Shown here: piece after piece, positions 14,918 through 34,356 of the stretch
How the letters are laid out: every line of letters starts with the position of its first letter
Numbering within the stretch: position 1 is the first letter of the stretch
From: an uncultured Lachnospiraceae bacterium
GTDB taxonomy: Bacteria; Bacillota; Clostridia; Lachnospirales; Lachnospiraceae
Direction: 5' to 3'
Assembly: GCA_905235345.1 (NCBI GenBank)
Contig: CAJOLO010000001.1
Location: 1-44,840, forward strand
DNA length: 44,840 nt
The notes under the pieces: model-generated
Seen by the model: the letters and a program-made list of their open reading frames with translations, nothing else
Databases searched by the model: none
Told to the model about the DNA's origin: nothing
Program-made: the position numbers and the translations under genes

Positions 14918-15220
14918 ATGGATGTAAAATTAGTAAACAGAGGAGAGGACGGAGAGCTTCTTCTGTCGGGAGATTTGGATACCAAGACAGCAAAGGATGC
15001 GGAGGCATTATTCTTACAGATGGCAGACAGATTCACAAATATTACGCTTAACATGAAGGATTTGCAGTATATATCATCGGCAGGTCTGAGAAGTATCCGT
15101 AATCTTTATATGAAGCTTATGAAAAAAGGCGGCAAGCTGATGGTCAGCAATGTGAATGAGAATGTTATGGAAGTCTTCGAGATGACAGGACTGGCAGGCC
15201 TTCTGAATATAAGAGAATAA
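14918..15220 (+). CDS. STAS-domain anti-anti-sigma-type protein (SpoIIAA/RsbV-like), 100 aa
   Basis: ORF track 14888 (TTG). GGGAAGGA at 14901-14908 favours ATG 14918. Pattern LSGDLD..., candidate phosphorylatable Ser in YISSAGLRS, and MEVFEMTGL typical of the STAS fold. Confidence 0.85.
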   Translation: MDVKLVNRGEDGELLLSGDLDTKTAKDAEALFLQMADRFTNITLNMKDLQYISSAGLRSIRNLYMKLMKKGGKLMVSNVNENVMEVFEMTGLAGLLNIRE

Positions 15221-15249
15221 GAAACACTTGCCGCCGATTAAGCTATTGT

Positions 15250-15282
15250 GTTGCACATTTGTAGCGCTTTATATGATATGTT
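15250..15282 (+). promoter_or_regulatory. Motif copy P2: GTTGCAC(15250-15256)-4bp-GTAGCGC(15261-15267)-9bp-TATGTT(15277-15282)
   Basis: Read directly from the sequence. It lies about 155 nt upstream of ATG 15437. Confidence 0.6.
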
Positions 15283-15436
15283 ATATGTATATCTCAGACG
15301 AAGATGTCCCCCGCCTCTAAGCAGAGCGAATGCAGGGGCAACAAACTTTGGAATAACTGACAATTGAAAAAGCAATCGTTAGGATAACCATGGCTGACTA
15401 TGCCATATGTGGTTCCCATGAAAGGAGCTATTCACT

Positions 15437-17623
15437 ATGCACATTAAGAAAATACACCACACAATATATAAGAGGCTTCACGCCCTGGCATTAGCGGGAG
15501 TTATGACACTAACCCTGCTTGCAGAGGCCACGCCGCTGCTTGACGGTATAGCGCCATTTACTTCCGGGACATCAGCTAAGCTTACCGGAATGCCTTCCAA
15601 GGTCTATGCGACCTCATCGGCTGAGGAGACAACTGAGGAAGCAAAGGAGACAACTGAGGAAGCAAAGGAGACAACTGAGGAAGCAAAGGAGAATGTGAAC
15701 TCAGCAGCCACGGTGCTTAAGGATACCCATGGGCGTATCGTGCTTTGGAAATGGGAGAAGGTTACCCAGAGTAATGTAGGCAATCTGATAAATGATGACA
15801 AATTCCACCCCTCAATGCTGGTGCGCATGGATAGCAGTGGCAATTACAAGGGCTTTATCTCCACATTTGCGGATGAGGAGCATGTCTATCGCGGATATGA
15901 CAATGGAAATTATCCCGAGAAGTTTAATAAGCTTGAGCAGTCAAGCAGGGATGCACATGGTTCTAAGGTGGAAAGGGAGATCGGACTGTCATACTGTTAC
16001 AACCAGTATAGTTCATTTTTTATCAAGCTGGATAATCAGGGCAATTCGTTAAATGATGCGGAAGTATTTGGACAGGATGTGTTCTACACCAACGGAAGCA
16101 ATATGGGTGTACCCTATATAAGAGCCAAGCGGATAGGCAACACTCTGAGGACTAAGTTAAAGGATCGTAATACATTCAGAGTTGATGCCAGTATAGTGCT
16201 TGCCAGAGCCTCTGCGGCAAAGGATCCCAATGATGTCTCTTTCTATGAGGTCATGGACGGCACCCTTTCTGATGATGATTACTTTCTGGAAAAATGGTGG
16301 TATGGAAGCGGCGGTGAGAAGAATGAGCCGTATTTATATATAACACCGAAAAGTGGTAAGTATTACACCCCAAACTATGAGTTCTGCCTTCAGCCCTTTG
16401 GAGCGGAGAATGGTGGACGAGGTGATACCTGGGTGATCAAGGCAGACCTGAATGAGGAGGAGGATCCGGGCCTTGACGGACTCGATTATGCCATTGCTGA
16501 TGATTGCCAGGGTAAATATGGTGATCAGATTGATGGTTTTTCCACCACACTTTTGACCAAGGGTGGCTATCTTCTTGCCATGGATGTAAGAAGGGCGGGA
16601 GGTAACGGACCGGTAATATCTGCGAACAGCTATGGAATAGGTTTGTCACCATATTACAGCGGACGTAATATATATGATGTTAAGGTGAGTGGTGCGGAGT
16701 GTCGTTTTACATGGTATGTGGGAACACCCTACACATTTGCTTCTCTTGTGGGACAGGGTGGCGATTCTGAGACGGGTGAACATGGAACCACCATCATCGG
16801 CAAGGGGGAGCTTCTTGAGATCAACAATGCGGAATACATGGATGTGAACAACCGTCTTCAGCGTTCAGACGGTCTGATCCTTCCTGAAAGTGCTAAGATA
16901 ATTATTAATGAGGGCGGCGTGTTGTCCGTTACCACTAACCTGATCAATAACGGTAAGATTATTAACAACGGAGGTACGATAATAATCAAAGAAGGCGGGT
17001 GTATAAGTCCCTTCCTGGATACCAATGAAGGTGTGGTTGAATGCAGAAATGGCGGTAATATCGTTGTCATGCCTGAGGGCAGACTCTTTTGTCTGTCGGA
17101 TATATATATGAAAGATGTTGATCTTACCACACTGGCAACACAAAATGAGTGCAGCTTAAAGCTTACCGGCGGTTCCACCCTCATCAATTACGGTCTGTTC
17201 GCCAACAGCTTCTGCCAGATAGATAAGTCCAGCATAATTGAGAACCGTGGTAAGGGTGTCATTATGGCAGCGGTTAAGCGGAAGAATATCAACAAGCTGC
17301 TGTATAATGCCGAGCTTAAGATAGATGGAGATTATACTACTGTTGAAGGATTAGAGCCCATTGACGGCTATGGGCTGGCGGCTGAGATGACGGATAACTA
17401 TATCATGTTCTATGGTATCACCTGCCCTCAATCCTATAGCGGTACCTTTAGCTCATTGAATTCATACAGTATGGATGATGGCGGAACGATTCGGTGTGAC
17501 AGGACAGCTACCTTTGTAAGGTACATATATTCTGAAAAATACAAACCTGAAAATGATACCGGAAGCCAGAAATGGTACTTTGACGCAGTAAGACTTGTGG
17601 ATGTGGAGGAGCCTGATTACTGA
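15437..17623 (+). CDS. Secreted 728-aa protein with 3x ETTEEAK repeats and a C-terminal Gly/Asn-rich, beta-helix-like repeat region
   Basis: AGGAG RBS at 15423-15427. The N-terminus is a basic n-region followed by a hydrophobic h-region. NEGGVLSV..NNGKIINNGGTIIIKEGG..RNGGNIVV..LTGGSTLINYG resembles parallel beta-helix passenger repeats. Confidence 0.7.
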   Translation: MHIKKIHHTIYKRLHALALAGVMTLTLLAEATPLLDGIAPFTSGTSAKLTGMPSKVYATSSAEETTEEAKETTEEAKETTEEAKENVNSAATVLKDTHGRIVLWKWEKVTQSNVGNLINDDKFHPSMLVRMDSSGNYKGFISTFADEEHVYRGYDNGNYPEKFNKLEQSSRDAHGSKVEREIGLSYCYNQYSSFFIKLDNQGNSLNDAEVFGQDVFYTNGSNMGVPYIRAKRIGNTLRTKLKDRNTFRVDASIVLARASAAKDPNDVSFYEVMDGTLSDDDYFLEKWWYGSGGEKNEPYLYITPKSGKYYTPNYEFCLQPFGAENGGRGDTWVIKADLNEEEDPGLDGLDYAIADDCQGKYGDQIDGFSTTLLTKGGYLLAMDVRRAGGNGPVISANSYGIGLSPYYSGRNIYDVKVSGAECRFTWYVGTPYTFASLVGQGGDSETGEHGTTIIGKGELLEINNAEYMDVNNRLQRSDGLILPESAKIIINEGGVLSVTTNLINNGKIINNGGTIIIKEGGCISPFLDTNEGVVECRNGGNIVVMPEGRLFCLSDIYMKDVDLTTLATQNECSLKLTGGSTLINYGLFANSFCQIDKSSIIENRGKGVIMAAVKRKNINKLLYNAELKIDGDYTTVEGLEPIDGYGLAAEMTDNYIMFYGITCPQSYSGTFSSLNSYSMDDGGTIRCDRTATFVRYIYSEKYKPENDTGSQKWYFDAVRLVDVEEPDY
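15626..15688 (+). repeat. 3 exact tandem copies of the 21-bp unit gagacaactgaggaagcaaag (ETTEEAK)
   Basis: Read directly from the sequence. Confidence 0.95.
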
Positions 17624-17737
17624 TGGGTGGTCAGTAATGTATGCAGGTATAATATGCTGCATTTTACTTCACTTAAATGATAACTTGAAAGCGTATGGAT
17701 ACACGGATCCATGAAATGGGAATGGGGGAATGAAAGT

Positions 17738-20700
17738 ATGAAGAAAATACATATCATTCATAACAGAATATGGAAAAGAGGACTTGCAGGGATACTTGCA
17801 CTTTCACTGTTCCTCTCATGTGTTCCGGAACTTGGTGCGGAAGCAACCACTGAGATAAGTGCTGATTCCGGCATGGCAGTTGAAGACGATGCAGCTTCGG
17901 AAGAAGCACCCGTAGAGGAAGCTTCACTTCTTCCAAACTATTCCGTAACACCCAATGCGGAGATTCCGGCCTATGAAGCCTACAAGGGTATGAGCGAATG
18001 GAATAACGGTACAGTAACAGATGCCATGCCTAACACATATTCCCTTACCATTGCCACCGGGGAGAGTGCCGGAGATTCGGTACTTTATTTTGTGGTGCGG
18101 TATAAGGATACACTTGGCAATACGAGGTCACAGTTTGTATTCCCCAATACAGATGGCGGAGCCAGAAGTGATTCCGTATTGAGATACAAGGCAGGAGATG
18201 CTCTTGACAAAGCCTATGGCTCAAGCAATATAGGAACCTACAAATATGCGGAGGATAGCAAGAAAGAGAGCCCTCTTGACTCATGGACGGTACAGGATTA
18301 CATATTTACTACGGAGTATACCATTGCGACCATTGAGAAGGTGGAGGTGTATCTTTCCACAGGAACTACAGGCACAAGCAGCATTCCGGATCAAGAGGAT
18401 AATACTCTAAGCTCTGATGGAGATAATGACAGTAAAGAGACAGTAAATGATTCCAACACGCAGTTTGTTACAAATGACAATCAGCCCAATAATAATGTTA
18501 TTAGTAAAATAGAAGTAAGTGATACCGATGGTGTCGTTAAGACGGATGAGGACACAGAGGGTGCCGTTAAGGTCATACCCGCGGATACTACACTTAGATT
18601 TTCAGCGAATAAAGGCGGTTCAGATAGTAATAGCAAGGTGAACACCAAGAAATCGGATGTTTACTATAGGTATGATGATGTCAATCAGGATTTTATTGAA
18701 GATGAAAATGGTTACTTTCAGTATGATGCTGAATGGAGGACATATAGATATTATAATAATCGTAATCATGTATACTTGTACTTTTACCCCGAAAAATATG
18801 AATTTATTACAGCGGAACAGGCTAAAGAGTTGTGGGAAAATGGTATAGAGCCGGATATTGATGAACCTAAAGAAGATGTGAAATATGCATTCGACGAGCT
18901 CCTTAAAACATTTTATCCTGATCCGGGGCAGGCGAGAGTATATTATTACAGCAAGTATGATAAAACATTTTGGTATACTGAAAATAGAACCCAATATTTT
19001 TATGATTTCAATAGTAAAGAATTTGTAGAATATGGTGATCTGAAAAACCCGAAAAGATATGGAGACTACAATCCTGAATTTAAGAAAAATACAAATTATT
19101 ATTATGATGTGTACTCCCGCACATTCAAAGAAGATGCTGAGGGCAAATTTGTGTATGATCCTGAAGTTGGTACCGTATATCACACAGAAAAAGAAGATGT
19201 ATATTATGATGTGCCAACCCGCAAATTTGTGGGAAAAGACAAATTGACGGAAATAGATACTTATCGCTATGATGATTATGACCAGAATTTTATTCCGGAT
19301 AGGAATGGTGATTTTCAATATGATTCCTTGTTGGAGACCTATTATATTAAAACAGACAAAAATATATTATTATACTATTATCCTGAGAGATGTGATTTTA
19401 TTACATGGAAACAATATTCTGATTGGAAGTCAAAAGGTAAAGAACCGGCTGCAGAACCTGATAAAAAGGGCAAATATTCCTTTTATAAGTTTCTTGAAAC
19501 ATTTTATGATGATCCTAAAGGGGAATATTCTTATGATGATAAGAGCAAAACATTTTATAAAACAAAGCGGGGTTATATTTACTCAGATTATGAATACTAT
19601 GATTTTGAATCTCGATCTTTTAGTCAGGGTATAGTTTTTGGGAGTGGTTCAGGAAATGATGAATTCAAGGCTCAGCATAGATATGGGGATTACAACCCCG
19701 GTTTTAATGAAACAGCCCATTATGTATTTGATGTATATAGTCGCAAATTTAAGGAATCTGATAATGGCAAATTTGTGTATGATCCCGATGTTGGTACCGT
19801 ATATCACACAGAAAAAGAAGATGTATATTATGATGTGCCAACCCGCAAATTTGTGGAAAAGGATAAATTATCGGAATATTATCGCTATGATGATTTCGAT
19901 CAGAACTTTATTTTTGATAATGGTGGTGATTTTCAATATGATTCCGAGCTGGAGACCTATTATATTGCAACAGGGGAAGGACTACTAGATACATTATTGT
20001 ATTTTTATCCGGAGAAATATGAATTCGTAACAAAGGTACAATACAAGGAATGGAAGAATAACGGTGTGACGCCGGATACAGAACCTAAGGCGTGGGTAGA
20101 TGAGGAAACAAAAAATGCGATAAAATATTCTTATAATGAGGCAACCCATACATTTTATACATTTTATACAGGAAATGAGGCATATGAATATTCTGATGAC
20201 AAGAACACATTTATATCTTCTACAGATAAAAAGTATTTTGATTTTAATAAGCGGAAGTTTGTTAATGAGGAAGAATTAACCGAGCAGATAAGGTACAGGA
20301 AGAAACCAAAGCCTGAATATAAGGAAGACGCCAATTACTACTTTGATGTATGTACTCGTACCTTCAAGGAGGATGCGAAAGGCAAATTCGTATATGATCC
20401 GGAGCTTGGAACGGTATATCACACTGTCAAAAATGTGTATTATGACATCAATACGGATAAATTTGTTCCAAAGGAGCAGTTGACCGACCAGAACAGCTAC
20501 TCAGATGAAGAGAAAGGCACGAGCTACTATACAGACAATGTGGTGTCTGAGGATAAGCTGTCCCATAAGAAGGATGTCACTGCTAACACCAAAGGCATAA
20601 TAGGTACCAATACCAAAACATCTTCCAAGGGAAGCTGGACCATACAGGGACTTTCTGTTTATAAGATAAATAAATACAAGAGATACGAGGAGTACGGTTT

Positions 20701-23700
20701 GGTTTCCGGACAGAAGTTCCTTGACTTTGAAGGTTATAAGGTTGCGGATGTAAAGAAGAGGAACGGTGGAGCCCTTACCTTCTCCACATCCGGAGTGGAT
20801 ACCATCATAACCATCGGCGGAGCGGAGGACAGTAACTACTGTGACATCGTGAATTATGCCGAGAATGAAGTCAAGAGGGAATTTGCCTCTGATTCCTCAC
20901 TCTATTCTATAAGAATGGATATGGCAGACCAGTTGAATGCGGGAATTGAAGCATTTATGAACGCAGACGGAACGAAGCTTAGCGGTGATAACGGTATCGT
21001 TGAGGATATCGCGATGGAGTTACAGTATAAGGATATACACGGATGGACCAGAAAGGTCACGCTCCCATTTATAATGAGCAGTTATATGGAAGCTTCCAAT
21101 GCATGCGGAGATAATACCATATTAGGCTTTGCGGGACGCGGCGATACGGTGGCGATGCAGGGACTGCTGCCTGAATTTGCCAGTCTTGCTACTTCCCCCA
21201 AGATCTATGTGGGCAATACTGCAAGAACCAAGGTAAGTGAGAAGGGAATAAATGTAAGCAGCCCCACGACTAAGATGAATACGGCAATCACCGCCACGGC
21301 GTCAGACGATATAAGTCTTGCGGGCGTATCCATGTATAAGGGCGGATGTATGCCTTATGTGATGGGAGGTACGGATTCTGACGGGCAGGCGCTTGTGGGC
21401 GCGACCCTACAGTATGTGTTCGAGAATGCGGATCCCATACAGTACTATACCACGACCAACACTAAGGGAAGGCTGGTGAAGGCGAACGGTAACGATACCA
21501 TCAAGCTGGTGGCGTATAAGAGCGGTTCACCGCTGATAGCGTCAGGGTTTGGCAGGGACAGATATATGGTGACCCTTAAGACCGGTGATAAGGGCAGGTC
21601 GGGGACGAAGGACGATATTTCCCTTATGTTCTATTACGAGAAGCAGGATGGAACGAAGGGAACTACCATCTCCTACAGGGTTAAGAAGGCTGCCAATGAC
21701 TTTCTGGGCACATGGCCCACCAAGGCCGGAGAAAACTACATAGAAACATCCGGACTTTCAGATGGCGGGGATATATCATTTCTCATAGAGGCACCGGATC
21801 TGAAATCATTCACCGGAGTGGATATATCATTACTTGGGGATGACGAGTGGCTGATGGATAACCTTATCATCTCGCTGGTGGATGATGTCTCGTTAAGGCG
21901 GGCATACATAAGGGATAAGAACGACACCAATTACTGGGTAGAGCGGCAGATGACCATAGCGCCCATCTTCAGCCTGAAGGGATTGGATGCCTATGTGCAG
22001 GATAATGACGGCAATGTCTTAGATGAAGACGGCAGGCGGGTCGAGAAGAAGAAGGTGCAGAAATATGATGATGACGGCAATCCGCTCTATGACGATAACG
22101 GGGAGCCAATCTATGAGGAAGTGGAGGACGACAGCTATTATACCCAGACAAGAACAATGAGTGAACAGTTCTTTACCGGTGGACAGTCCATCAATATATC
22201 GTTTAACACCCGTACCATCAATGACGTGAGGGATACGGATTACGCTTCGGTGCGCTACCGCATGACATACGACCAGACGGGAGTTGACTGGGGTTTTGCC
22301 AAGAAGAAGCTGACTTATGATGTGTCGGTGAAGGTTGCGGAGGATCCTGAATATGACTTGGGTAACGGCGATTCCGGTTCTACCAACTACTTCTACTTCC
22401 AGCTTATATTCAAGAACGGCAACAGCGGATATGTGCTTGCCAACCAGCAGATCAGCTCTGACGGTTTCCGTTCCGGCAAAACGGAGATATTCTCCATAGC
22501 GGTGAACAGGGATTACGGAGATCTTACGGGAGTACGCATCATACCGGAGGATATATCTTCAGATGCGGATCCGTTTGATAAGCTGAATATTGACACAATA
22601 ACGGTGACACAGCAGACCAACGGCGGAGCTGCCATGATGTATGTGATCGGACAGGTAGGATGGATTGACATCGATTACAGGGATGAGAGTGAGAAGGCAA
22701 GCTTCAGAGGACAGCAGGCGAGAACGGCCGGAGAGATTGCAAAGCTCTGCAAGGTAACGGACAGAAAGCGTGTCTATAACATGCTCTGCGAGTTCACCAA
22801 TCTGCCATGGGATAACGATTATTACCAGTTAGAGGGCTCGGTAATGGCAACGGTATCTTATATGAGTTCGGCCACCAATAAGGTGGAGACTATGGAATTC
22901 GATGTGGTGCAAAGGCTTGCGTCATATATGAACAAGACAGCCAAATCCTTTGATGCGGCGACCAATCCGGATGAGGTGCGGGTAGCGTCCTCTCAGATGA
23001 AGACTATATCAGATCCGGAGTGGATGTTCAGACCGAACACCACAGACCGGTTTATCATGCCGCCGATTGCGGATATACAGTCATTAAAGAGTATCGTGTT
23101 CACGGCGCAGTCAAGGAACGGCTATCCTGCCACATGGAACATAGGTAAGGTATGCATATCCGAGATCGAAGAAAACGGCGGATTACAGTTAAATGCGAAT
23201 GAAGAGTATTACAGGAGCATGAAGACCAAGAGTCTGTGTGCCAGCGACGGGGAGACGGTAACAGTCAATGTCAACATAGGTACGCCATCTGCCTCCAAGG
23301 AGATCAAATTCAATGATAATACCATAACATGGTCTTCGGAAGGATGGGCGACGCCTGTAAGCAGAATGCCGGATTCATCTGATGACAAGGTGAATATATT
23401 CGTATATCCGTCAGCTTCAACGAAGAATATAGAGGGCAGCAAGGTGAACATGTTCTTCCAGTATGCCATACCGTTCTCACAGTATATGCAAAAGACCGAG
23501 GTATTAGAGCCGGCCAACAGCGGAACTAATGATGCAGTGTTCTATATACTGGGAATGAGCGTGAAGGATTTCGTAAGTGCCTCGACACTTGGAATACAGT
23601 GCTCCAACTCAAGACTTTTGTTCAGTCATGCCGTTGTGCAGCACGTCAGGGATGATGTGGTCATGAATACATTTACCTATCTGTTTACGGGAGAGCCGTC

Positions 23701-25357: not shown

Positions 25358-25446
25358 GATATAGTGGAAACTGATTGTGCAACTTATGCGACACTATAAT
25401 TTAATGACAATGGGGAATACTATACAGGATTTAGGAGAAATATGAC

Positions 25447-26667
25447 ATGAATAAAAAGAAAATACTGATTGCAGGCATTGCAGTATTACTGTTTGCGGTG
25501 TTATTAGCAGTCATCATAATCAATGTTAATAAAGGAAAGGTGAAGCTTTTCACTGATTCTAATTATCCATGCATGTATAAGAGCAGGGATAATAATGTGG
25601 TATTTCAACTGAATGATAAGAATAATTATGATATCCCTTGGCAGATAGAGGAAGATGGTGGAATTGTGGATGCATCTGTTAAGAATGACGGCAAGGGCAG
25701 GAAGGCAGTATATACTTTATCTGCTAAGGCTCCGGGGATGACGGAGCTTAGGCTTTATAAGACTAAAGAGCTGTTAGGCTTTGAGGTTGAGATAGTTTCT
25801 GTAAGGATTCCTGTCAACATATCGGAGAATGAGACAGGAATGGTGTTAAATGTTTTCGGATCACCCACACTTACTGACAATGGCGGAGCTGTTGGAGGCA
25901 GGAATACCGACAATCCATATATTCTGCTTAACAATGGTGACGGCACTGCAAAGGTCGTATTTGTTAAGGGACAGAATGACTGGATGGTATCTGACAGCAG
26001 TAATATGGCAAGCATTGAATGGAATATAGCAGATGACAGCTATGATTTATGTCAGATTTCAGAGAATCCTGATTATGACCCTGATGCAGAGGTTACTACA
26101 GAAATAACTACAGAATATATTGAACCTGAGAATTCAGGGGATGAAGAAGATATGATTGATCCGGAAAGTGTTACTGAAGATAATTCCGAAAGCTCCTCTT
26201 CTAAAGGTTCAAGCGAGAAGCCTTCTAAGACAGCTAAGGATATCGGGAATATGACTATCTCAGATGAGGATTATGAGAATGGAAGTATTGATTTGTCTGA
26301 ATATGCAGTAGATGGAGAGATACCTGAGGATGTCCTTAAGGCGCTTGACGAGAAGCTTGCAGAGAAAGCTAAGGAGATGGGTGACGATTCCGGTTATTCG
26401 TCAGACAGCGAATCTGACAGTGAGTTGTCTGATACAGAGGATGGTGAGGCATCGGAGGATGGGCTTACAATAAATCCCGAGACGGGAGTAGTTATCATCA
26501 ATGAAGAAGATTTGATGAATATGCGTGCAGAGAAGATCACAGTTGTCAAGGAGACAATATTAACTGTTTCCTCTGAGCAGTATAATACTGTAGAATATAT
26601 CAAGGTATCATTTATGTCTGATGGCAATATTATGCTTTCCATCAGCAAAAAGGGGCCTAAGAAATAA
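25447..26667 (+). CDS. Bitopic membrane protein of 406 aa with an N-terminal TM anchor, an extracytoplasmic domain, an acidic Ser/Asp/Glu linker and a small C-terminal domain
   Basis: AGGAG RBS at 25433-25437. KKILIAGIAVLLFAVLLAVIIINV anchor. No family recognised. Confidence 0.65.
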   Translation: MNKKKILIAGIAVLLFAVLLAVIIINVNKGKVKLFTDSNYPCMYKSRDNNVVFQLNDKNNYDIPWQIEEDGGIVDASVKNDGKGRKAVYTLSAKAPGMTELRLYKTKELLGFEVEIVSVRIPVNISENETGMVLNVFGSPTLTDNGGAVGGRNTDNPYILLNNGDGTAKVVFVKGQNDWMVSDSSNMASIEWNIADDSYDLCQISENPDYDPDAEVTTEITTEYIEPENSGDEEDMIDPESVTEDNSESSSSKGSSEKPSKTAKDIGNMTISDEDYENGSIDLSEYAVDGEIPEDVLKALDEKLAEKAKEMGDDSGYSSDSESDSELSDTEDGEASEDGLTINPETGVVIINEEDLMNMRAEKITVVKETILTVSSEQYNTVEYIKVSFMSDGNIMLSISKKGPKK

Positions 26668-26678
26668 TTTGGAAGGTG

Positions 26679-27812
26679 ATGTTAGTGTTATCAAAGAAGG
26701 ACAAGACTGATCAGCTTCTTATGGAATCCAGAAAGCTGCTGCTTAATCAGGTGGAAGTGGGAAGTGACGGCAGGCTGATCGCAGTGGATGAGATAAGGAC
26801 ATTCAGATATGGTGCTGCAGAGGGCGAGCATAAGGTGAGGATTTCCGGTATAACCACCAGGGATTTCTTCTACCGAACCAAATACAACCGAACCAAGGCC
26901 GTATATCAGGCGTCTGAGGCTATGAAGGATATAGGCAGGCGTGCCAGTCTTAAGTGCATGAATGATGCGGCAGCCTGTATAATCAAATCACCGATATTTT
27001 ATCCGGTGGTAATCGTGTTTTATGAGAATAGAGACGGACGAATGCAGCTTTCTGCATTTACTGCGAGAGCGTTCTCATCCCTTTTTGCCATCAATTCAGC
27101 GCTTAAGAGGTTTGACAGGGAACTGCCTGATACAATGGTGAGAAAGGTTTCCATACACAGCGTACATGATGTGAATATGGCTGTTATTCACAGTCTCAAG
27201 GGTCTCGTCAAAAAAGATAGCGATAATGAAGACGGAGACTATGTTGATCTGAAGAAGATGTTTAAGGCAGAAAGAAGAAACAGAAAGGTTTCCGGTGCCG
27301 GCGGCAGAGGGGGAAGAGGAAGGAAAAAGAGTGAAGAATCGGTTCGCACAGGGAATTATCATATTGGGGATGATAAGGAATTACTGGATCAGAGAAGTCT
27401 ATATAATGGCGAATCAGAGAGTTTAAGTTCAGAGCCTGAAGGATTAGAGCAGGAAGACTCAGGGATAAATAGCGATAGAAGTTATGAAAGCCGCGAGGAA
27501 AGGAAAGCCAGAAAGAAGGCTGAGCGATTAGAAAAAAAGCGGGAAGCTGCCAGAAGAAAGTACGAGAAGCTCTTGGAAGAAGCTCCGGCAAAGACACCGG
27601 GGGGCGAAGATTTGATTAATACATCGGTGGATGAGGGATATTCTGAGGAAGAGGATGAAGATATAATGAGAGAATTTACCGGAATGAGCACAGATGAGTT
27701 GGATGCTTATGACGATAATGAAACCGATGAAGATATAATGAGAGAATTTACCGGAATGAGCACGGATGAGATGAATGCTTACGGTGATTATGGAACTAAT
27801 GAAGATAATTGA
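26679..27812 (+). CDS. Cytoplasmic protein of unknown function (about 377 aa) with a globular N-terminal domain, a basic RGGRGRKK segment and an acidic tail carrying a 2x 24-aa repeat
   Basis: ORF track 26676 (GTG). GGAAGG lies at 26671-26676. The start could be 26679 or 26685. No signal peptide. Confidence 0.6.
   Translation: MLVLSKKDKTDQLLMESRKLLLNQVEVGSDGRLIAVDEIRTFRYGAAEGEHKVRISGITTRDFFYRTKYNRTKAVYQASEAMKDIGRRASLKCMNDAAACIIKSPIFYPVVIVFYENRDGRMQLSAFTARAFSSLFAINSALKRFDRELPDTMVRKVSIHSVHDVNMAVIHSLKGLVKKDSDNEDGDYVDLKKMFKAERRNRKVSGAGGRGGRGRKKSEESVRTGNYHIGDDKELLDQRSLYNGESESLSSEPEGLEQEDSGINSDRSYESREERKARKKAERLEKKREAARRKYEKLLEEAPAKTPGGEDLINTSVDEGYSEEEDEDIMREFTGMSTDELDAYDDNETDEDIMREFTGMSTDEMNAYGDYGTNEDN
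27657..27800 (+). repeat. 2 tandem copies of a 72-bp (24-aa) unit, EDIMREFTGMSTDE(L/M)(D/N)AY...
   Basis: Unit starts at 27657 and 27729 were read directly from the sequence. Confidence 0.9.
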
Positions 27813-27928
27813 AGCCTGTGGGAATAGTAGAATGAGAAGTGGATGAAGCACATTGGCTTTAAAATGGATAGTTCACTGTGACATAACCTGTGGTAGTTAT
27901 TAAAGAGATTGGTACAAGGAGGAAAAGC

Positions 27929-28456
27929 ATGAGTGACGATATCAAATCAGAGGAAAGTTTTCATCTGGGAGACTTGGAAGAATTCAGCATTTCTGGTAAG
28001 ATTTCCGAAGGTACTGATGAAAGTATAGATTATACAATAAGTGAGGATGGCAGTTCCATTATCATAGACGCAGAGGATGCGAATATTGATGTAGTCCAGG
28101 AATTTGTGCGCGATAAGCTTATGGCATACGGCTGCGGGAATAAAGTTATGCTGCAGATAAGACTTGCGGTGGAGGAGATATTTGTCAATATTATTTCCTA
28201 TGCATACAGGCCCGAAATTGGTAAGGCTGAGGTGTCCTGTGAGGTTACGGAGGAGCCGCTTTCGGTGTGCATTCAGTTCATGGATTCAGGTAAGCCCTTT
28301 GACCCTTTGGCGGCTGATGAAGCTGATACATCAGGTGCTATGTTTCTGGAACGGGAGGGCGGCTTTGGGATACATTTGGTTAAGAATACCATGGATGATG
28401 TGAAGTATGAATATTGTGAAGGTAAGAATATTCTTACTGTTATGAAGAGGCTGTAG
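27929..28456 (+). CDS. RsbW/SpoIIAB-like anti-sigma-type Ser/Thr kinase (HATPase_c_2) with an acidic N-terminal extension of about 55 aa
   Basis: ORF track 27890 (GTG). AGGAGG at 27917-27922 favours ATG 27929. N-box EEIFVNIISYAY, DSGKPFDP, and GGFGIHLVKNTMDDV. Confidence 0.85.
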   Translation: MSDDIKSEESFHLGDLEEFSISGKISEGTDESIDYTISEDGSSIIIDAEDANIDVVQEFVRDKLMAYGCGNKVMLQIRLAVEEIFVNIISYAYRPEIGKAEVSCEVTEEPLSVCIQFMDSGKPFDPLAADEADTSGAMFLEREGGFGIHLVKNTMDDVKYEYCEGKNILTVMKRL

Positions 28457-28546
28457 AGACGGAAAGATATTATCAATTTTATTCTGTATGAAAACTGCAG
28501 TTGGTATTGGGACAGATAGAGATTTACAATATGGGGGAGTGGAAGA

Positions 28547-29524
28547 ATGAATACAAGAGTGATCAATGTAATTCCGGAGAGAGTGCTTGAAGGAATAGCT
28601 TTATGTGGTTATAAAAAAGTAGAACCGGAGGATCAGGCATTGTTTGATCCGTACTATGATAAAATGAATCATCCATGGTCAGGCTCCACAGAATTTCTTA
28701 ATTTTATAGCGTGGAGTGACACTCTTCCGGTTTATTTCAAGGAATCAGATGGCATGATAATAGGTTTGAGTTATGAATCTAATGAAGGAATGCTTGTGGG
28801 TATACCATTTATTGGGCATTATACAAATGAATCGGTTAAGCAGGTATTTGCTATAATGAAAAAAGATTTTGAAACGATTGGTGAGCCGTTAGTCATTATG
28901 GATGTAACAAAATGGATGCTTCCGTATTATGAGTCTGTTGATGGTTTTTCCTTCGATATTGAAGATAAAAGGGAGTATATGGAGTATATATATACCGCCA
29001 CCGATTTTGAGGCGGGGCTGGATAAGCAGGATGACCGATATCGATACAGGTATTTCATGCGCAAATTCGATTATGAGGTTGAAGAGATCAAGTCGAAGCA
29101 CAGAGATGAGATTGTAGGTTTTATGGAACGTATATGGTGTGGTGGCAAGACATGTAGTGAATGTCAGTTTGGGTGTATGGTAGAGGTTACAGACAGGGTT
29201 GTGTCCGCATTTGACGAGCTGGAGGTTAACGGATTGCTGGTAAGGGTAGACGGAGAAATTGCGGGCTTTTGTATAGTTACAAAGCGTATGGGGCAGGCAA
29301 TATATCAATTCAAGCATGCCATTAATCGTATCAAGGGGATTAATGAATATATGCTTCGTGAGTGCTATGAGCGTTATCTTAAAGGGGTTGATATTGTCAA
29401 TTATACCGAGGATTGTGGGATAGAAAGTCTTAGAAGATATAAGATGAATCTGGCAACGGATTATTCTCTTTTGTCAAGACTTACTCTAATCCAATCAGAT
29501 AATAAAATGAAAGTACATAATTAA
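28547..29524 (+). CDS. DUF2156-like protein (fold of the C-terminal domain of lysyl-phosphatidylglycerol synthase / GNAT-like)
   Basis: The ORF itself is clear. Family assignment comes from pattern memory only: EFLNFIAWSD, IEDKREYMEYIYTATDF, RYRYRYFMRKFDYE. It needs an HMM check. Confidence 0.5.
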   Translation: MNTRVINVIPERVLEGIALCGYKKVEPEDQALFDPYYDKMNHPWSGSTEFLNFIAWSDTLPVYFKESDGMIIGLSYESNEGMLVGIPFIGHYTNESVKQVFAIMKKDFETIGEPLVIMDVTKWMLPYYESVDGFSFDIEDKREYMEYIYTATDFEAGLDKQDDRYRYRYFMRKFDYEVEEIKSKHRDEIVGFMERIWCGGKTCSECQFGCMVEVTDRVVSAFDELEVNGLLVRVDGEIAGFCIVTKRMGQAIYQFKHAINRIKGINEYMLRECYERYLKGVDIVNYTEDCGIESLRRYKMNLATDYSLLSRLTLIQSDNKMKVHN

Positions 29525-29560
29525 TGCCGCTTGTTGCGGCAAAGATGAGGGCTGCGGATA

Positions 29561-32500
29561 ATGAAACATAACCATATGGCAGATAATGAGAATATAGAAA
29601 ATCAAAACATAGAAAAGCATGGGGATCAAAGCTTAGGAAATAAGAATACACAAGGTCAAGAGGATTGCATTTTGGAAGATCATAACATTGAGAAGAAGAG
29701 TATGGATATGATGAAGGAGAAGAAGAGAAAACGCCGAATAATATTCAGTGTTTTGCTTTTGATTTTTTCCATTATTGTAGTAATCCAGTTACATAATTGG
29801 ATTAATGTTAATCCATTTAGACCATTTGAATTAAGCAATGTATATTGTTCGACTATCGATAAATACGGCAATATGTATGTGATAGATGACAGTAACTCAA
29901 GACTTTTGAAGATTGACTCTGAAGGGAGGCTGCTGTGGAAGAAGAAAGCCTCCGGGAAAACCTTTGAAAACGCTTATAATATATCATGTGATGACGAAGG
30001 CAATATATATATTCAGGATGTACGCATTGACAGTGGGGTCAGGCTTGCTTCAGAGAGCGTTGTCAAATTCTCAACCGATGGAAAGTTTTTAGGAGTATTG
30101 AGAACATATAATTATATGGGAGAAAATAAGTCATCAGAGGTCACTATGCGCGAGTCGATTGTGGGACTTTCCGGACAGGAGCATTCTGTCATGTATACGC
30201 GGAAGGGCAAAGATGCCTTATATGAAATAGACGAAGAACAGTCGATATGTGAGACATATCCTTTTCCTGATGCTTTTGACACTGTATTATCCTGTGCCTA
30301 TGATAATGGCAGAATATGGTATACCACTTATGATGGAAGATTACTTGAGTACGTGGATGGAGTTAATGATAAGCTTCTCTATGATTGTGAGGACGAAGAA
30401 GGAAGTATCATAAGAAGTGTAAGCTACGGTGATGGAAAGTTATATGTTGCTGATATAGGTTTCAGGGATATATTGGTTGTAGATTTAGATACAGGAGATC
30501 AGTTCCGTCTTGCGTTGGAGGAGGATGTAAAAGAGCGTGAGATTTCCTACATGGTAAATGCAGACAATGGTTTGGTTTCGACATCATCTTATTCAGTATC
30601 CTTATGGAACGGGGATAAATATACCAGATATTATGAAGTGGAATTAAGCAATAAATGGAAGATATTAACTATTCTTCTTATGTTTTCGTTACTGGTGCTG
30701 GCAATAGATGTAGTTATAGATATTGTACTATTTGTCTTTTATATAATTAAGATATCAAGTTATCAGCTAAAGGTAATTCTGGGTATAATTGCAGGTGTTA
30801 TTGCAATTGGAGCACTTTTTTTGGGTTCGTTGTATCCGCAGTTCAGCAAAGAACTGCAAAGCACAGTGTTTTCCAGAGAGAAACTTGCAGCCACAGTTAC
30901 TGCTGAAGCAGTGCCTACGGAAGCGTTTCTAGCGATTACTAAACCATCAGATTACATGAATGAAGACTATCTGGCTGTAAAGAGGGCGGTTGACAATATC
31001 TTCCTGCATGATTCGGATGCCTCTAAGGATCTGTATTGTGAAATGTACCGTATAATTGATGGAACTATAACATTAACCTATTCCATTGAAAACGGATGTG
31101 CTGTGTATCCTTATGATTGGGATTATGAAGGCTCGGATGAGCAGAAGATTATAACCACCGGGGTAGGAAAGGAAGTTGTTTATATAGGCAGTTCGGGGAG
31201 CTATATATATGTATTGGAGCCTATGAGGGATGATAGTGGGGAAGTTATCGGACTTATAGAGGTGGGTAAAGATCTTGCAGGTTTCATGGCAGAGAGTAAC
31301 AAAATGCTAATAAAACTTATCATTAATATTGTCGCTATTACAATTGTTATTATTATGTTTGTGATAGAGCTGTTCTACTTTATAGAAGGAAAGAGAGAAA
31401 GAGAGGCTGTTAATGGTGATAGTGCTGCTTACGAAGATAACAGTAGCATGGAGAAGGCTTTGAAAACAACCGGTGGGACATCTGCCGGAATTATAAGATT
31501 TTTGTCATTCCTTATATACTTTTTCACTAATCTTTCTACGGCTATTCTTCCTATATATGCCTTGCGCATAGCAGGTAAGAGCGGCTTTACATTCGGACTA
31601 TCCAAAGAGGTGTTATCTGCCGTACCAATATCTGCAGAGGTTATTATGGGTGCAGTTTGCTCATTTTTCGGAAGTAAGGTTATTAAGGCTTTCGGTGCTA
31701 AAAAGACTGCATTTGTCAGTGCTGTATTGATTACGGCAGGTCTGGCACTTAGAGTAGTTCCTGACATATGGGTGCTTTCTCTGGCACAGGCAATATTAGG
31801 AGCTGGATGGGGAACACTTTTGCTCATGGTAAACATACTTATTACCGCGCTGCCTGAGGAGCGCAGAGACACAGGCTTTGCCTATTTCAGTGCAGCAGGC
31901 TTCAGTGGTGTTAATTGTGGTATATTGTTTGGAGGTTTCATTATTCAGTGGGTGTCTTATCCGGTTATGTTTATTATAGTGGCTGCACTAAGTATTACAA
32001 TTATATTTGCAGTTAGGAGTTACATACCTGATTCGCTTGTTCATGAAGAGACTATGGAAGATACTGAGGAAGAAAAAGCTGCTTCAATGCCTGTTATAAA
32101 GCTTATATGTAATCCGCGAATTCTCGGGTTTATCTTTATGATGCTTATACCTGCAGCTATTGTAGGATATTATCTTAATTACCTGTATCCTATTCTTGGT
32201 GAGAAATGGGGACTTTCGGAGACATATATAGGTTATTCATATCTGATAGACGGTCTGTTTGTGGTATTATTTGGAGGATTATTGACTAAGGTATTTTCGG
32301 GAAAGAAAAGACTGGGACTGGCAATTTCATCATTTATATATGCGGTAGCATTTGTTGTTGTGGTAGTATTCAATAATATACCTGCACTGTTTGCCTCTCT
32401 TGCTATTGTGGGAATATCTGACGGCTTTGGCAATCCGTTGATGACAGGTTATTTTACTGATCTTGATATAGTTGAGAAATATGGGTATGACAGGGCATTT

Positions 32501-32704
32501 GGTGTATATAGTTTGTTTGAAAATATTGCACAGACAGTGGGCTCATTTGTATTCTCATATGTGCTTATAGTAGGTGTTAAAAGTGGACTTATGATTATTG
32601 CTGTGGCACTTTCTGTGCTCACTATGTTATTCCTTCTAGGAGGGATTTTTGATCGAAGGAAGAAAACAGAACAAGTTAAAATTGCAGGAGATAAATCGTT
32701 ATGA
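29561..32704 (+). CDS. 1047-aa fusion protein: N-terminal TM, NHL-like beta-propeller, TM pair, Cache/PDC-like domain, TM, then a C-terminal 12-TM MFS-like transporter
   Basis: YVIDDSNSRLLKIDSEGRLLWKK and LYVADIGFRDILVVD resemble NHL blades. GEVIGLIEVGKDL is Cache-like. The last roughly 400 aa form an MFS-like helix bundle. The stop overlaps the next start (ATGA at 32701-32704). Confidence 0.7.
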   Translation: MKHNHMADNENIENQNIEKHGDQSLGNKNTQGQEDCILEDHNIEKKSMDMMKEKKRKRRIIFSVLLLIFSIIVVIQLHNWINVNPFRPFELSNVYCSTIDKYGNMYVIDDSNSRLLKIDSEGRLLWKKKASGKTFENAYNISCDDEGNIYIQDVRIDSGVRLASESVVKFSTDGKFLGVLRTYNYMGENKSSEVTMRESIVGLSGQEHSVMYTRKGKDALYEIDEEQSICETYPFPDAFDTVLSCAYDNGRIWYTTYDGRLLEYVDGVNDKLLYDCEDEEGSIIRSVSYGDGKLYVADIGFRDILVVDLDTGDQFRLALEEDVKEREISYMVNADNGLVSTSSYSVSLWNGDKYTRYYEVELSNKWKILTILLMFSLLVLAIDVVIDIVLFVFYIIKISSYQLKVILGIIAGVIAIGALFLGSLYPQFSKELQSTVFSREKLAATVTAEAVPTEAFLAITKPSDYMNEDYLAVKRAVDNIFLHDSDASKDLYCEMYRIIDGTITLTYSIENGCAVYPYDWDYEGSDEQKIITTGVGKEVVYIGSSGSYIYVLEPMRDDSGEVIGLIEVGKDLAGFMAESNKMLIKLIINIVAITIVIIMFVIELFYFIEGKREREAVNGDSAAYEDNSSMEKALKTTGGTSAGIIRFLSFLIYFFTNLSTAILPIYALRIAGKSGFTFGLSKEVLSAVPISAEVIMGAVCSFFGSKVIKAFGAKKTAFVSAVLITAGLALRVVPDIWVLSLAQAILGAGWGTLLLMVNILITALPEERRDTGFAYFSAAGFSGVNCGILFGGFIIQWVSYPVMFIIVAALSITIIFAVRSYIPDSLVHEETMEDTEEEKAASMPVIKLICNPRILGFIFMMLIPAAIVGYYLNYLYPILGEKWGLSETYIGYSYLIDGLFVVLFGGLLTKVFSGKKRLGLAISSFIYAVAFVVVVVFNNIPALFASLAIVGISDGFGNPLMTGYFTDLDIVEKYGYDRAFGVYSLFENIAQTVGSFVFSYVLIVGVKSGLMIIAVALSVLTMLFLLGGIFDRRKKTEQVKIAGDKSL

Positions 32705-34356
32705 AAAAAAGAAAATCAATACTTGGTAAAAAACTTCTCAGGCTTACGGTCATTGACATGTGTATAATAGCCATACTTTTTCTTTCCGGAAGTTCATATA
32801 TATATATTGAAGAGATGAATTCTGTTTATAAGAAAAAGAGTTCAGAGGTTGCTTTTTCTGTTGCAGATATGGTTGATGGAGATTTTATACGTGATCTTTC
32901 TGAGATGATTGATACAGATGAATATAAAGATGTATTCGGTAAGGCTTCATATGAGAATCAGCAGCCGATCATAGACTACCTTAAAGAGAAAGGCATGTAT
33001 GAAAGATATATTGAATTAAATGAAATGATCGAGAATATAAGAAATGATATGAATATTGCATATCTGTATATTGAAGTCTTTCGTGACGGTAAGGCACAAT
33101 ATATTGTTGAACCCTTTGCCGGTTTCTATGCCCTTGGCTATGAAGAGGAACTGTTGGATGAATTTAGCGGAATCTATGGAAATGAGCATATTGAAGGGGA
33201 TGTGACCCGTAGTGAATTCGGCTGGCTGTCTACAGGAGGAGAACCTGTATATGATTCGGAAGGCAATGCTGTTGCAGTAGTTTTAGTGGATATTGACATG
33301 AACGAGATCATGAACAAACGTTATGTATTTATTATCATAATGCTTGTGGAACTTATTGTAGTAATTACGTTGGCACAGGTAATGATGTCTAAGCTGTTGA
33401 CAAGGGATGTTATCAATCCGATTAAGGCACTTACCGATAATGCACAGTCCTTCGGTACAGGGGAAAACGGTTTTTCCAAGGAGAATATTATTGATCTTGA
33501 TATCAAAAGCGGAGACGAGATCGAGGATATGTATCATATGTTGCGCTTCATGCAGGAGAGCATTATCGACTATATGGATAACCTTCAGTCTGTAACTGCG
33601 GAACGTGAACGTATCGGTGCGGAGGTAGAGATAGCTACTACTATCCAGCAGAGTATGCTTGAACATGTAGACCCTGATTTCACAGGAAAGAAGGAGTATG
33701 ATCTGTTTGCATCCATGACGCCGGCAAGGGAAGTAGGCGGAGATTTCTACGATTTTTTCATGACAGATGATGACCATATTGCCATATTGATTGCCGATGT
33801 GTCGGATAAGGGTGTGGGCTCGGCATTTTTTATGGCCATAGCCAAGACACTGATCAAGACATATTCAAAGACGGGCGGAACACCATCGGAGATAATTACC
33901 AATGTTGACAGACATATATCGGAGAAGAACGAGGCAGGGCTCTTTGTTACGGTATGGTTTGCGATAATTGATCTTGTGAGTGGACATGTGGAAGCCTGCA
34001 ATGCAGGACACGATTATCCTGCAATTATGAAAAATGGTGAGGAGTTCGTCATAGAGAAGACACCTCATGGACCGCCGGTAGCATTTATACCGGGAATGGA
34101 TTTTGTTGGTACGGAGTTCGACTTAAAGCCGGGAGACCGGATATTCTTATATACGGACGGCTTAAATGAAGCCAAGCGCGGCGATGGTGAGCGTTTTGGT
34201 ACGGACAGAATGCTGGAGGTACTGAATGCCCACAAGGATGCGGATAATGAGGAAATGATTCAGCTTATGCGTAAGGCAGTGGATGAGTTTGCCGGGGATG
34301 AGCCGCAGTTTGATGATATGACAATGCTTGGATTCACATTCAAGGGCAGAGGATAG
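32701..34356 (+). CDS. Membrane-bound PP2C/SpoIIE-family phosphatase (RsbU-like) with an extracytoplasmic Cache-like domain and a HAMP linker
   Basis: N-terminal TM, sensor domain and a second TM. HAMP-like INPIKALTDNAQ. PP2C motifs REVGGDFYDF, ADVSDKGVGSA, YTDGLNEA and DDMTMLGF. Confidence 0.9.
   Translation: MKKRKSILGKKLLRLTVIDMCIIAILFLSGSSYIYIEEMNSVYKKKSSEVAFSVADMVDGDFIRDLSEMIDTDEYKDVFGKASYENQQPIIDYLKEKGMYERYIELNEMIENIRNDMNIAYLYIEVFRDGKAQYIVEPFAGFYALGYEEELLDEFSGIYGNEHIEGDVTRSEFGWLSTGGEPVYDSEGNAVAVVLVDIDMNEIMNKRYVFIIIMLVELIVVITLAQVMMSKLLTRDVINPIKALTDNAQSFGTGENGFSKENIIDLDIKSGDEIEDMYHMLRFMQESIIDYMDNLQSVTAERERIGAEVEIATTIQQSMLEHVDPDFTGKKEYDLFASMTPAREVGGDFYDFFMTDDDHIAILIADVSDKGVGSAFFMAIAKTLIKTYSKTGGTPSEIITNVDRHISEKNEAGLFVTVWFAIIDLVSGHVEACNAGHDYPAIMKNGEEFVIEKTPHGPPVAFIPGMDFVGTEFDLKPGDRIFLYTDGLNEAKRGDGERFGTDRMLEVLNAHKDADNEEMIQLMRKAVDEFAGDEPQFDDMTMLGFTFKGRG

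Follow-up and report, generated by a model that had tools for sequence, protein, structure and literature searches.

The 44.8-kb stretch of DNA considered here (positions 1 to 44,840 of contig CAJOLO010000001.1, from an uncultured Lachnospiraceae bacterium, hereafter the window) carries a cluster of genes for a type IV secretion system (T4SS) and, among them, three genes which encode a STAS protein, an RsbW/SpoIIAB-class kinase and a SpoIIE-family PP2C phosphatase, i.e., the parts of a partner-switching module. Every substantial open reading frame (ORF) of the window is on the + strand (Table 1). The ORFs were annotated with Pfam and NCBIfam, 22 large ones being checked, and 456 six-frame segments were probed.

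The apparatus genes can be assigned to known families. The VirB4-like ATPase displays P-loop_TraG (2.1e-17) and DUF87 domains, N-terminal transmembrane (TM) segments and a long acidic repeat tail, and scores 531 bits with the NCBIfam model VirB4_plasma, under the cutoff of 590. The VirD4-type coupling protein (T4SS-DNA_transf, 4e-53; TraG-D_C, 1.5e-32) belongs to the CD1115 family with 293 bits, above the cutoff of 250, the VirB6-like protein to the MMCAP2_0566 family with 120.5 bits (cutoff 90) as well as matching the Mbov_0396 family (2.1e-17), and the pilin to the Mbov_0395 family with 54.7 bits, above the cutoff of 40. By these assignments, the clustering of VirB4, VirD4, VirB6-like and pilin genes indicates a minimal T4SS of the monoderm kind (MPF-FATA, resembling that of the integrative and conjugative elements, or ICEs, of Mollicutes). 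The pilin-like, VirB6-like and VirB4 proteins match the Mbov_0395, Mbov_0396 and Mbov_0397 families of the minimal T4SS found on ICEs and plasmids of Mycoplasma and Spiroplasma, and the window resembles the mycoplasma ICE apparatus (PMC12857230) in that neither a VirB1-like nor a VirB8-like component was identified. Unlike in Mollicutes ICEs, no Pfam domain of a relaxase, an integrase or a transposase was found in any large ORF of the window, and neither a DDE transposase, an integrase nor a relaxase was found in the compact sister clusters or their flanks. A conjugative element would combine its T4SS with a relaxase, a DDE transposase or an integrase, and Pfam revealed none of these in the window. 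The cluster also exceeds the Mollicutes systems by a giant secreted protein, a two-component system or an extracytoplasmic function (ECF) sigma factor, the three signalling genes and large family-less ORFs. Among PLSDB plasmids no close relative of VirB4 was found, the best matches being about 33% identical and all from Mollicutes (Spiroplasma, Mycoplasma).

The ORF of the STAS protein opens at 14888 and a start at 14918 is favored, with GGAAGGA 9 nt before the ATG. The protein scores above the cutoff of TIGR00377, the anti-sigma-factor antagonist model (70.8 bits vs 53.45, E 7.7e-20), and its nearest solved structure is RsbV in the RsbV-RsbW complex (6m36_B, 4.9e-9), with an alignment that spans the phospho-Ser segment D-S-T-G-L. 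Its SSAGL motif lies at 15074-15088 (aa 53-57) and the second Ser, aa 54, is the presumed phospho-acceptor; the Ser-Ser pair of SS[AS]G[LIM] is kept in all of the 76 STAS ORFs from related loci.

For the kinase, a start at 27929 is favored, with AAGGAGG 6 nt upstream. The N box EEIFVNIISYAY (28172-28207; residues E82, E83, and N87), the G1 box DSGKPFDP (28283-28306; D119 and G121) and the G2 box GGFGIHL (28358-28378; G144, G145, and G147) have residues that are invariant in 16 homologues and, with the sole exception of E83 (at least 90% conserved), in 49 homologues as well. The AlphaFold2 (AF2) model has a predicted local distance difference test score (pLDDT) above 90 over most of the length of the core, and a Foldseek search with it returned SpoIIAB (1tid, E 2.9e-7), RsbW (6m37), UsfX (8jzt), Rv1364c and SiaB (6kko), the top matches to SpoIIAB, RsbW and UsfX having a probability of 1.00 and a target-normalized TM-score of 0.65-0.79. 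The protein stays far under the NCBIfam equivalog cutoffs (39 bits vs 145). More distant relatives of the kinase occur as fusions, either STAS-APH(phosphotransferase)-HATPase_c_2 or PP2C-HATPase_c_2 single proteins, in Clostridia loci without T4SS genes (L046 8840-10393, L060 8801-10429, and L032 8309-10429; L numbers designate related loci); such fusions give no clue to a target within the T4SS.

The phosphatase displays its motifs GGDFYD, DVSDKG, TDGLNE and DDMT at 33736, 33796, 34153, and 34312, respectively, and the metal-binding Asp residues (of GGDFYD, ADVS, TDG, and FDD) are invariant in 32/32 T4SS-linked orthologues. Because a loop of some 170 aa is enclosed between two hydrophobic segments, a topology which recurs in the orthologues, the enzyme is read as a membrane sensor with the predicted layout TM segment, outside loop of about 170 aa, TM segment, linker and PPM domain. 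Its nearest solved structure is SiaA (6k4e, 9.4e-11). With the NCBIfam model of SiaA (NF038263) it obtains 8.5e-21 and 74 bits against a cutoff of 700, so it is not a SiaA equivalog.

A preliminary description of this DNA had proposed these three identities, and they were borne out together with the SSAGL Ser, the N and G boxes, the four phosphatase motifs and the membrane location of the phosphatase; the position of the STAS gene directly after virB4 was confirmed from the ORF positions. The acidic N-terminal extension of the kinase, singled out there as unusual, is real, with 14 acidic and 2 basic residues among the first 47 aa and residues 6-30 at a pLDDT below 50 and thus predicted to be disordered, but it is lineage-specific. 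It consists, over some 45 aa, of a variable number (1 to ~6) of EE[ST]FHLGG repeats, which are found in the closest relatives only, and many T4SS-linked orthologues are without it, e.g., the 135-aa kinases of the gene orders b, c, and d described below. The idea that EE[ST]FHLGG is a shared docking or secretion signal was rejected, as the repeat is confined to the closest kinases plus one VirB4-derived and one unassigned ORF.

Table 1. Genes of the window, with positions, strand and main assignments.
Feature	Position	Strand	Remarks
Multi-TM protein	114-896	+	First gene of the window
LytS-type histidine kinase	937-2226	+	His_kinase 7.2e-14
Response regulator	2296-3114	+	Response_reg 5.8e-21
VirB2-like T4SS pilin	3259-3747	+	Pfam T4SS_pilin 2.3e-9; Mbov_0395 family
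VirD4-type coupling protein	4014-6038	+	T4SS-DNA_transf, TraG-D_C; CD1115 family
p350, 350-aa membrane-anchored protein	6061-7113	+	
VirB6-like polytopic membrane protein	7156-10614	+	MMCAP2_0566 / Mbov_0396 families
VirB4-like T4SS ATPase	10666-14820	+	Mbov_0397 family, 3.1e-159
STAS protein, 100 aa	14918-15220	+	Pfam STAS 2.4e-14; TIGR00377
p728, secreted 728-aa protein	15437-17623	+	
Giant protein, 2548 aa	17711-25357	+	Weak PLAT hit, 2.8e-5
p406, TM-anchored	25447-26667	+	No family
p378	26676-27812	+	Conserved N-domain and acidic repeat tail
RsbW/SpoIIAB-class kinase, 175 aa	27929-28456	+	HATPase_c_2 9.5e-22
DUF2156 / LPG_synthase_C protein	28547-29524	+	LPG_synthase_C 4.8e-17
MFS fusion protein, 1047 aa (N-terminal domain and MFS)	29561-32704	+	MFS_1 3.6e-34
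SpoIIE-family PP2C phosphatase, 551 aa	32701-34356	+	SpoIIE 9.9e-48
p473, p193, p993, p1038, four large hydrophilic ORFs	34474-42803	+	No Pfam match
ABC_ATPase-family protein	42838-44592	+	

Linkage of the three genes to the secretion cluster

The association of the three genes with the T4SS was examined in both directions, with about 170 related loci in all. In the forward test, anchored on the kinase, T4SS homologues were sought within 10 kb in 80 loci, with one genome per species. VirB4, VirD4, VirB6-like, pilin or giant-protein genes were near the kinase gene in 24/80 loci and in 18 of the 27 with the closest kinases, several of the loci without T4SS genes being on short contigs. In a neighbor-joining tree of kinase cores, the clade of the window is mostly T4SS-linked. 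The reverse test was anchored on VirB4 in metagenome loci. Where VirB4 and the giant protein occur together, a gene of the module is present in 20/25 loci and the STAS gene directly follows virB4 in 17/25, while the remaining 5/25 end within or just past the giant or virD4 gene, short of the place that the module has in order b; no clear counter-example to the STAS-virB4 linkage was found among these VirB4-plus-giant loci. In the mixed remainder, which includes a second VirB4 subgroup, a gene of the module was found in 14/44 loci. The gaps between virB4 and the STAS gene are often 3-7 bp or replaced by overlaps, and a 4-bp overlap links the STAS ORF to the giant ORF in L091, L092, L093, L095, L112, and L121. 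The divergence of VirB4 is correlated with that of the STAS protein (r = 0.79) and with that of the kinase (r = 0.67), none of 2000 Mantel permutations reaching the observed value in either case.

The three genes and the T4SS genes are found together through at least five gene orders, in which KIN stands for the kinase, RR for the response regulator, p378N for the N-domain of p378 and VirB6L for the VirB6-like protein. Order a, VirB4-STAS-giant-p406-p378-KIN-PP2C-p473, is that of the window, of E. ruminantium (GCA_900108205.1) and of Lachnospiraceae NE2001 (FOEK01) and NC2004 (JHXB01). Order b, giant-VirD4-p378N-STAS-KIN-PP2C, is fully contiguous (L005, L022, L024, L035, and L067) and has a variant, giant-p378N-STAS-KIN-PP2C, with VirD4 upstream (L099). 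Order c reads VirB4-STAS-giant-RR-KIN ... PP2C (L020, L023, L025, L026, and L033) and order d reads KIN-PP2C ... pilin-p728-VirD4-p350-VirB6L (L039, L041, and L042), while order e comprises PP2C-pilin-STAS-KIN and pilin-KIN-PP2C (L018 and L086). A compact cluster of about 23 kb, L112, contains in succession genes for an ECF sigma factor, pilin, p728, VirD4, p350, VirB6L, VirB4, STAS, giant, a 278-aa ORF, p378N, KIN, and PP2C.

Because the linkage survives so much rearrangement, and recurs in dozens of independent genomes and metagenomes, the module can be said to belong to the cluster. On this comparative evidence, the trio is a conserved, built-in part of a relaxase-less T4SS cluster of rumen and gut Clostridia. 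The view that the three genes form one partner-switching set belonging to the secretion locus, put forward in the preliminary description, is thereby upheld by the gene orders, the 17/25 STAS genes found after virB4 and the co-divergence. The trio had also been described as scattered. The distances of 12.7 and 17.5 kb from the STAS gene to the kinase and phosphatase genes are correct for the window, but the genes are contiguous as p378N-STAS-KIN-PP2C in L005, L022, L035, and L099, and the scattered layout is probably derived.

Sigma factors, cluster heads and p378

In canonical sigB and sigF operons the sigma gene directly follows the kinase gene. No Sigma70 Pfam match was obtained for the 22 large ORFs of the window, and at E<=10 SigF, SigB, SigW, and ECF probes retrieved nothing from the 456 six-frame segments. 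Pfam verified that the SigF and SigB probes, and likewise the ECF matches of the SigW probe, are sigma factors. With these probes, no sigma factor of the SigB/SigF type was found beside any of the 168 related loci scanned; those that did turn up were all of the ECF type and confined to a minority of the loci. The earlier statement that no sigma factor is encoded thus holds for the window in six frames, but it does not extend to all sister clusters, some of which carry an ECF sigma gene at their head. Such a gene lies directly upstream of the pilin gene in L093 (1124-1675), L106 (2616-3095), and L112 (906-1385), the three sigma factors being 48-72% identical to each other. A second ECF group is found at the cluster head in L129 (1-654) and L132 (5070-5579), and in L035 an ECF sigma gene (12248-12748) directly follows the PP2C gene.

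In the window, the head of the cluster is formed by the LytS-type kinase and the response regulator, which the preliminary description had not connected with it. The alignments of the regulator to CtrA, CreB, and DrrB run beyond the receiver domain; its C-terminal domain has no Pfam match, and a profile search against the PDB gave sub-threshold matches to KdpE and EmbR (E 0.13-0.65), so that the output domain can tentatively be regarded as a divergent winged helix of the OmpR/SARP type. Cluster heads vary, consisting of kinase and regulator, kinase alone, regulator alone or an ECF sigma factor. Where the head is in view, as it is in about 13 close clusters, an ECF sigma gene is present in 3 and two-component genes in about 9, including the window; L090, L100, and L114 have a histidine kinase without an adjacent regulator. 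Orthologues of the regulator are encoded immediately upstream of the kinase gene of the module in the five loci of order c. In L043 and L075, from Ruminococcus, the genes for the LytS kinase, the regulator, STAS, and KIN are contiguous (with PP2C in addition in L075) and no T4SS genes are present. The trio is steadier across clusters than any one transcription factor at the head.

Another gene which accompanies the module is that of p378, whose N-domain of about 141 aa (~26676-27150) is encoded directly upstream of STAS or KIN in most related loci. In orders a and b, an iterated hidden Markov model search locates it beside KIN or STAS; L169 and L170 provide further contexts. The ORF overlaps the kinase gene by 8 bp in E. 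ruminantium and the STAS gene by 17 bp in L170. A search with the single sequence gave 1 match, whereas the profile gave 162 homologues, few of them named and those as "hypothetical", and no Pfam match was found in any of the 162. The AF2 model of the N-domain is confident (pLDDT 83.6), and against the PDB Foldseek found nothing better than E 5e-3, with TM-scores below 0.4. The resemblance of p378 to the designed propeller Ika8 (PDB profile, 6.7e-12) was dismissed as a repeat artifact of four short repeated stretches. Among the proteins of the cluster, p378 is the foremost candidate for a fourth component or a target of the switch.

Output of the module

Judged by its domains and motifs, the module is of the partner-switching kind, from which it departs by having no co-encoded sigma factor of the SigB/SigF type. 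By analogy it would work like the Btr, Syp or Sia systems, while being a member of none of them. The Bacillus systems RsbV/RsbW/RsbU (sigma-B) and SpoIIAA/SpoIIAB/SpoIIE (sigma-F) consist of the same three domain families, provide the closest STAS and kinase structures (6m36_B, 1tid, and 6m37) and share the conserved phospho-Ser motif and N, G1, and G2 boxes. Unlike in Bacillus, no sigma gene follows the kinase gene in the window or in the 168 scanned loci, and the genes of the window lie inside a T4SS cluster. In Bordetella, BtrU, BtrV, and BtrW, i.e., a PP2C phosphatase, a STAS protein and an RsbW-like kinase, are likewise encoded inside a secretion-system locus. The ECF sigma factor BtrS is encoded beside these partner switchers in the same locus; ECF sigma genes are also carried by the sister clusters L093, L106, and L112, whereas the window has a two-component system instead. 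All three Btr proteins are needed for secretion, and none of them negatively regulates a SigB-type sigma factor encoded alongside (PMC8256260). However, the Btr proteins serve a Gram-negative type III secretion system (T3SS) and the cluster here is a monoderm T4SS-like one, with a phosphatase predicted to be a two-TM membrane sensor. Beyond the shared domains there is no sequence orthology between the two.

SiaC, the switch protein of the SiaA/SiaB/SiaC system of Pseudomonas aeruginosa, is not known as a classical STAS protein, and its phosphorylation site is a Thr, whereas its counterpart here has the classical STAS form with a Ser in SSAGL. In the Sia system a membrane PP2C phosphatase and an RsbW-like kinase toggle the switch protein, the unphosphorylated form of which activates a non-sigma target (PMC7647112). 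Among solved or curated proteins, SiaA is the nearest to the phosphatase of the window, and SiaB is among the fold matches of the kinase. The output there is the diguanylate cyclase SiaD, whereas no GGDEF domain was found by Pfam among the ORFs of the window. SypE of Vibrio fischeri carries a receiver domain in addition to its enzymatic parts. In the SypA/SypE system and in HenR/STAS of Anabaena, the output is the unphosphorylated form of a STAS protein encoded within the locus under its control (PMC8256260, PMC13555669); in contrast to the window, these outputs concern polysaccharide or biofilm and no secretion system, and SypE unites kinase and phosphatase in one protein (PMC8256260).

The reading which we put forward, and which we consider to stand an even chance of being correct, is that the trio is one working partner-switching module, acting as a dedicated, co-inherited regulator of the T4SS with a non-sigma, post-translational output. 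By default, the kinase would phosphorylate the Ser in SSAGL of the STAS protein. On an extracytoplasmic or envelope cue, sensed by the two-TM phosphatase, the phosphorylated STAS protein would be dephosphorylated, and it could then recapture the kinase, bind a partner associated with the T4SS, or both. VirB4, whose gene just precedes that of STAS, is a candidate for this partner, and so is the p378 N-domain protein, whose gene lies just upstream of STAS or KIN in most sister loci. The activity of the apparatus or of its substrates would thereby be switched post-translationally, while transcription of the cluster would be set separately by the regulator at its head, i.e., the LytS-type kinase and regulator here and the ECF sigma factor in some sisters. 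We infer the direction of the signaling, the identity of the target and the post-translational level of control alike. Non-sigma precedents are BtrUVW, needed for T3SS secretion, and SypA/SypE (PMC8256260), SiaABC, which acts on a diguanylate cyclase (PMC7647112), and a STAS protein that regulates a glycosyltransferase (PMC13555669). It is thus probable that this little-known machine is turned on and off through the phosphorylation of proteins. A narrower proposal, that the dephosphorylated STAS protein docks on VirB4 or p378 and so licenses the export of the large family-less proteins encoded downstream, once the phosphatase has sensed contact with a target cell or at the envelope, is possible but doubtful.

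Several observations weigh against a post-translational regulator dedicated to the T4SS. Conserved membership in the operon is just as compatible with control of the cluster at the level of transcription. The more distant kinases of the family belong to ordinary modules without T4SS genes nearby, and a third, more distant VirB4 subgroup (L143-L159) has no module genes within 10 kb, with the exception of one borderline locus. The correlated divergence may partly stem from shared species phylogeny. Finally, the ECF sigma genes of L093, L106, L112, L129, L132, and L035 have no obvious anti-sigma ORF beside them: the gaps between sigma and pilin genes are 30-300 bp, and the only ORF in such a gap (78 aa, in L093) has no Pfam match.

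This last point also speaks for a rival explanation, which we regard as unlikely, namely that the kinase is the anti-sigma factor of an ECF-type or other sigma factor encoded outside the window, which drives the promoters of the cluster and is freed by the STAS protein after the action of the phosphatase. The orthologous ECF sigma factors directly upstream of the pilin gene in three sister clusters, the ECF group of L129 and L132 and the PP2C-then-ECF order of L035 are in its favor, as are the best fold matches of the kinase, which are to the true anti-sigma factors SpoIIAB, RsbW, and UsfX. The window starts only 113 bp before its first gene, so that any sigma gene among the upstream neighbors would lie out of sight. 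However, an ECF sigma factor is found in just 3 of the roughly 13 close clusters with a visible head, the roughly 9 two-component ones keep the trio, and the kinase of L112 diverges more than any other in the comparison (33-45% identity to the rest). SpoIIAB contacts sigma region 3, which ECF sigma factors lack, and we know of no RsbW-type anti-ECF factor; both points argue against this explanation, as does the fact that the Bordetella partner switchers act on secretion and not as negative regulators (PMC8256260). Transcription would also be the output if the module modulated the two-component system of the cluster, either through the kinase as an anti-activator of the regulator or through an input of the STAS protein into the LytS kinase. 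While the regulator genes upstream of KIN in order c and the contiguous genes of L043 and L075 are consistent with this, it appears improbable in view of the three clusters whose histidine kinase has no adjacent regulator (L090, L100, and L114), of the three with an ECF sigma gene at the head instead (L093, L106, and L112) and of the weak assignment of the DNA-binding domain of the regulator (E 0.13-0.65). To our knowledge there is also no precedent for the binding of a response regulator by an RsbW-type protein, which counts further against it.

The module could instead regulate neighboring cargo and not the T4SS, whether the envelope pair formed by the DUF2156 and MFS proteins or the surface display of the giant protein. 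The DUF2156/MFS genes lie between those of the kinase and the phosphatase here and directly before PP2C in NC2004, a DUF2156 gene follows the kinase gene in L059, where there are no T4SS genes, and the giant gene is always beside or near that of STAS. The DUF2156/MFS pair is missing from most T4SS-linked loci, which nevertheless keep the trio, and group-2 loci such as L130 and L138 have virB4, STAS, and PP2C genes and no homologue of the giant protein, which leaves this explanation little probability. Chance neighborhood, or a decaying module without function at the locus, might be suggested by the spacing of the genes in the window (12.7 and 4.2 kb apart) and by the numerous orphan STAS, RsbW, and PP2C genes of Clostridia, but is highly improbable given that all catalytic residues are intact and that the linkage recurs in dozens of genomes with correlated divergence.

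A partner-switched T4SS would be of interest beyond this locus. Nearly all known functions of Gram-positive T4SS concern DNA transfer, and the existence of dedicated effector translocators in Gram-positive bacteria is a long-standing open question (PMC12857230, a review of 2025). Full-text searches, including T4SS papers checked for these terms, found no report tying partner switching, STAS, anti-sigma or PP2C proteins to any T4SS. The cluster bears on the question of effector translocators, being widespread in rumen and gut Clostridia and carrying large family-less proteins, with no relaxase found. Cultured Hungate isolates, namely E. ruminantium and Lachnospiraceae NE2001 and NC2004, carry it, which makes the system testable, and the built-in STAS-kinase-PP2C switch offers an experimental handle that could lock the machine on or off and help to reveal what it exports. 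If the narrower proposal made above is correct, this would be the first T4SS under direct control of a phospho-partner switch and a widespread, signal-gated, effector-translocating T4SS of rumen and gut Clostridia. A switch built into the T4SS would extend non-sigma partner switching beyond the control of the Bordetella T3SS, of biofilm and of cyclic di-GMP, and the p378 N-domain family, for which no fold is known, would be a candidate for a new component of such switches.

Neighboring genes and possible cargo

Homologues of p728, the giant protein and p406 are encoded in the same order in L001, L009-L017, L089, L090, and L112, and homologues of p473 come after the PP2C gene in many loci of order a. 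No meaningful Pfam match was obtained for p728, p406, p350, p473, p193, p993, and p1038, even at E<=5. No signal peptide is obvious by eye in p473, p193, p993, and p1038, and these four are candidate substrates of the T4SS. The GHSRGA motif (GxSxG) of p1038 (39687-42803) recalls the nucleophile elbow of lipases or Tle1-type enzymes, an unconfirmed resemblance in a protein that Pfam does not match. At a comparable downstream position, L100 has a gene for a true alpha/beta-hydrolase of 530 aa; both proteins are candidate effectors.

The DUF2156/MFS pair precedes the PP2C gene in Lachnospiraceae NC2004 too (L007, 15802-19746). In E. ruminantium (L001) the pair is missing and the kinase and PP2C genes are adjacent; the pair is therefore regarded as a lineage-specific insertion common to the window and NC2004. 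In the Anaerotruncus locus L059, the DUF2156 gene (10406-11383) follows a related kinase gene. The pair, of which the DUF2156 protein is soluble, may correspond to an aminoacyl-lipid modification of the envelope linked to the module.

With regard to transcription units, promoter-like sites between 14600 and 34550 (64 vs 55.5 +/- 7.8 in shuffled sequences) are uninformative on operon breaks, and a weak terminator-like hairpin at 15248-15267 lies directly 3' of the STAS gene. A tRNA scan and an Rfam scan of the window were both empty. Tail repeats are present in three proteins, at 9500-10614 (VirB6-like), 13700-14820 (VirB4) and 27500-27812 (p378). The tail of the VirB6-like protein consists of about 15 tandem copies of a unit of about 23 aa, GANTIPENQSVQVGGNSSFETST, while that of VirB4 contains GGIGFSEMTEEEYEDTDEE three times and that of p378 contains EDIMREFTGMSTDE twice.

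Some related loci show further features. In those of the third VirB4 subgroup (L143-L159), the pilin, VirB6L, and VirB4 genes come after a p350-like gene of great length (often >7 kb); these loci may represent a module-free variant of the machine. L020, L023, L039, L042, and L079 were binned as Odoribacter, Bacteroidales, Bacteroidaceae or Tidjanibacter; these Bacteroidota labels on loci with a Clostridia-type cluster are probably due to mis-binned metagenomic contigs and not to true carriers. The cargo of L003 includes a RelB/YafQ toxin-antitoxin pair (6354-6907) and a protein of 777 aa that matches PI3_PI4_kinase weakly (13999-16332), and L169 encodes at 16721-18058 a Phage_lysozyme2 protein, possibly a VirB1-like hydrolase.

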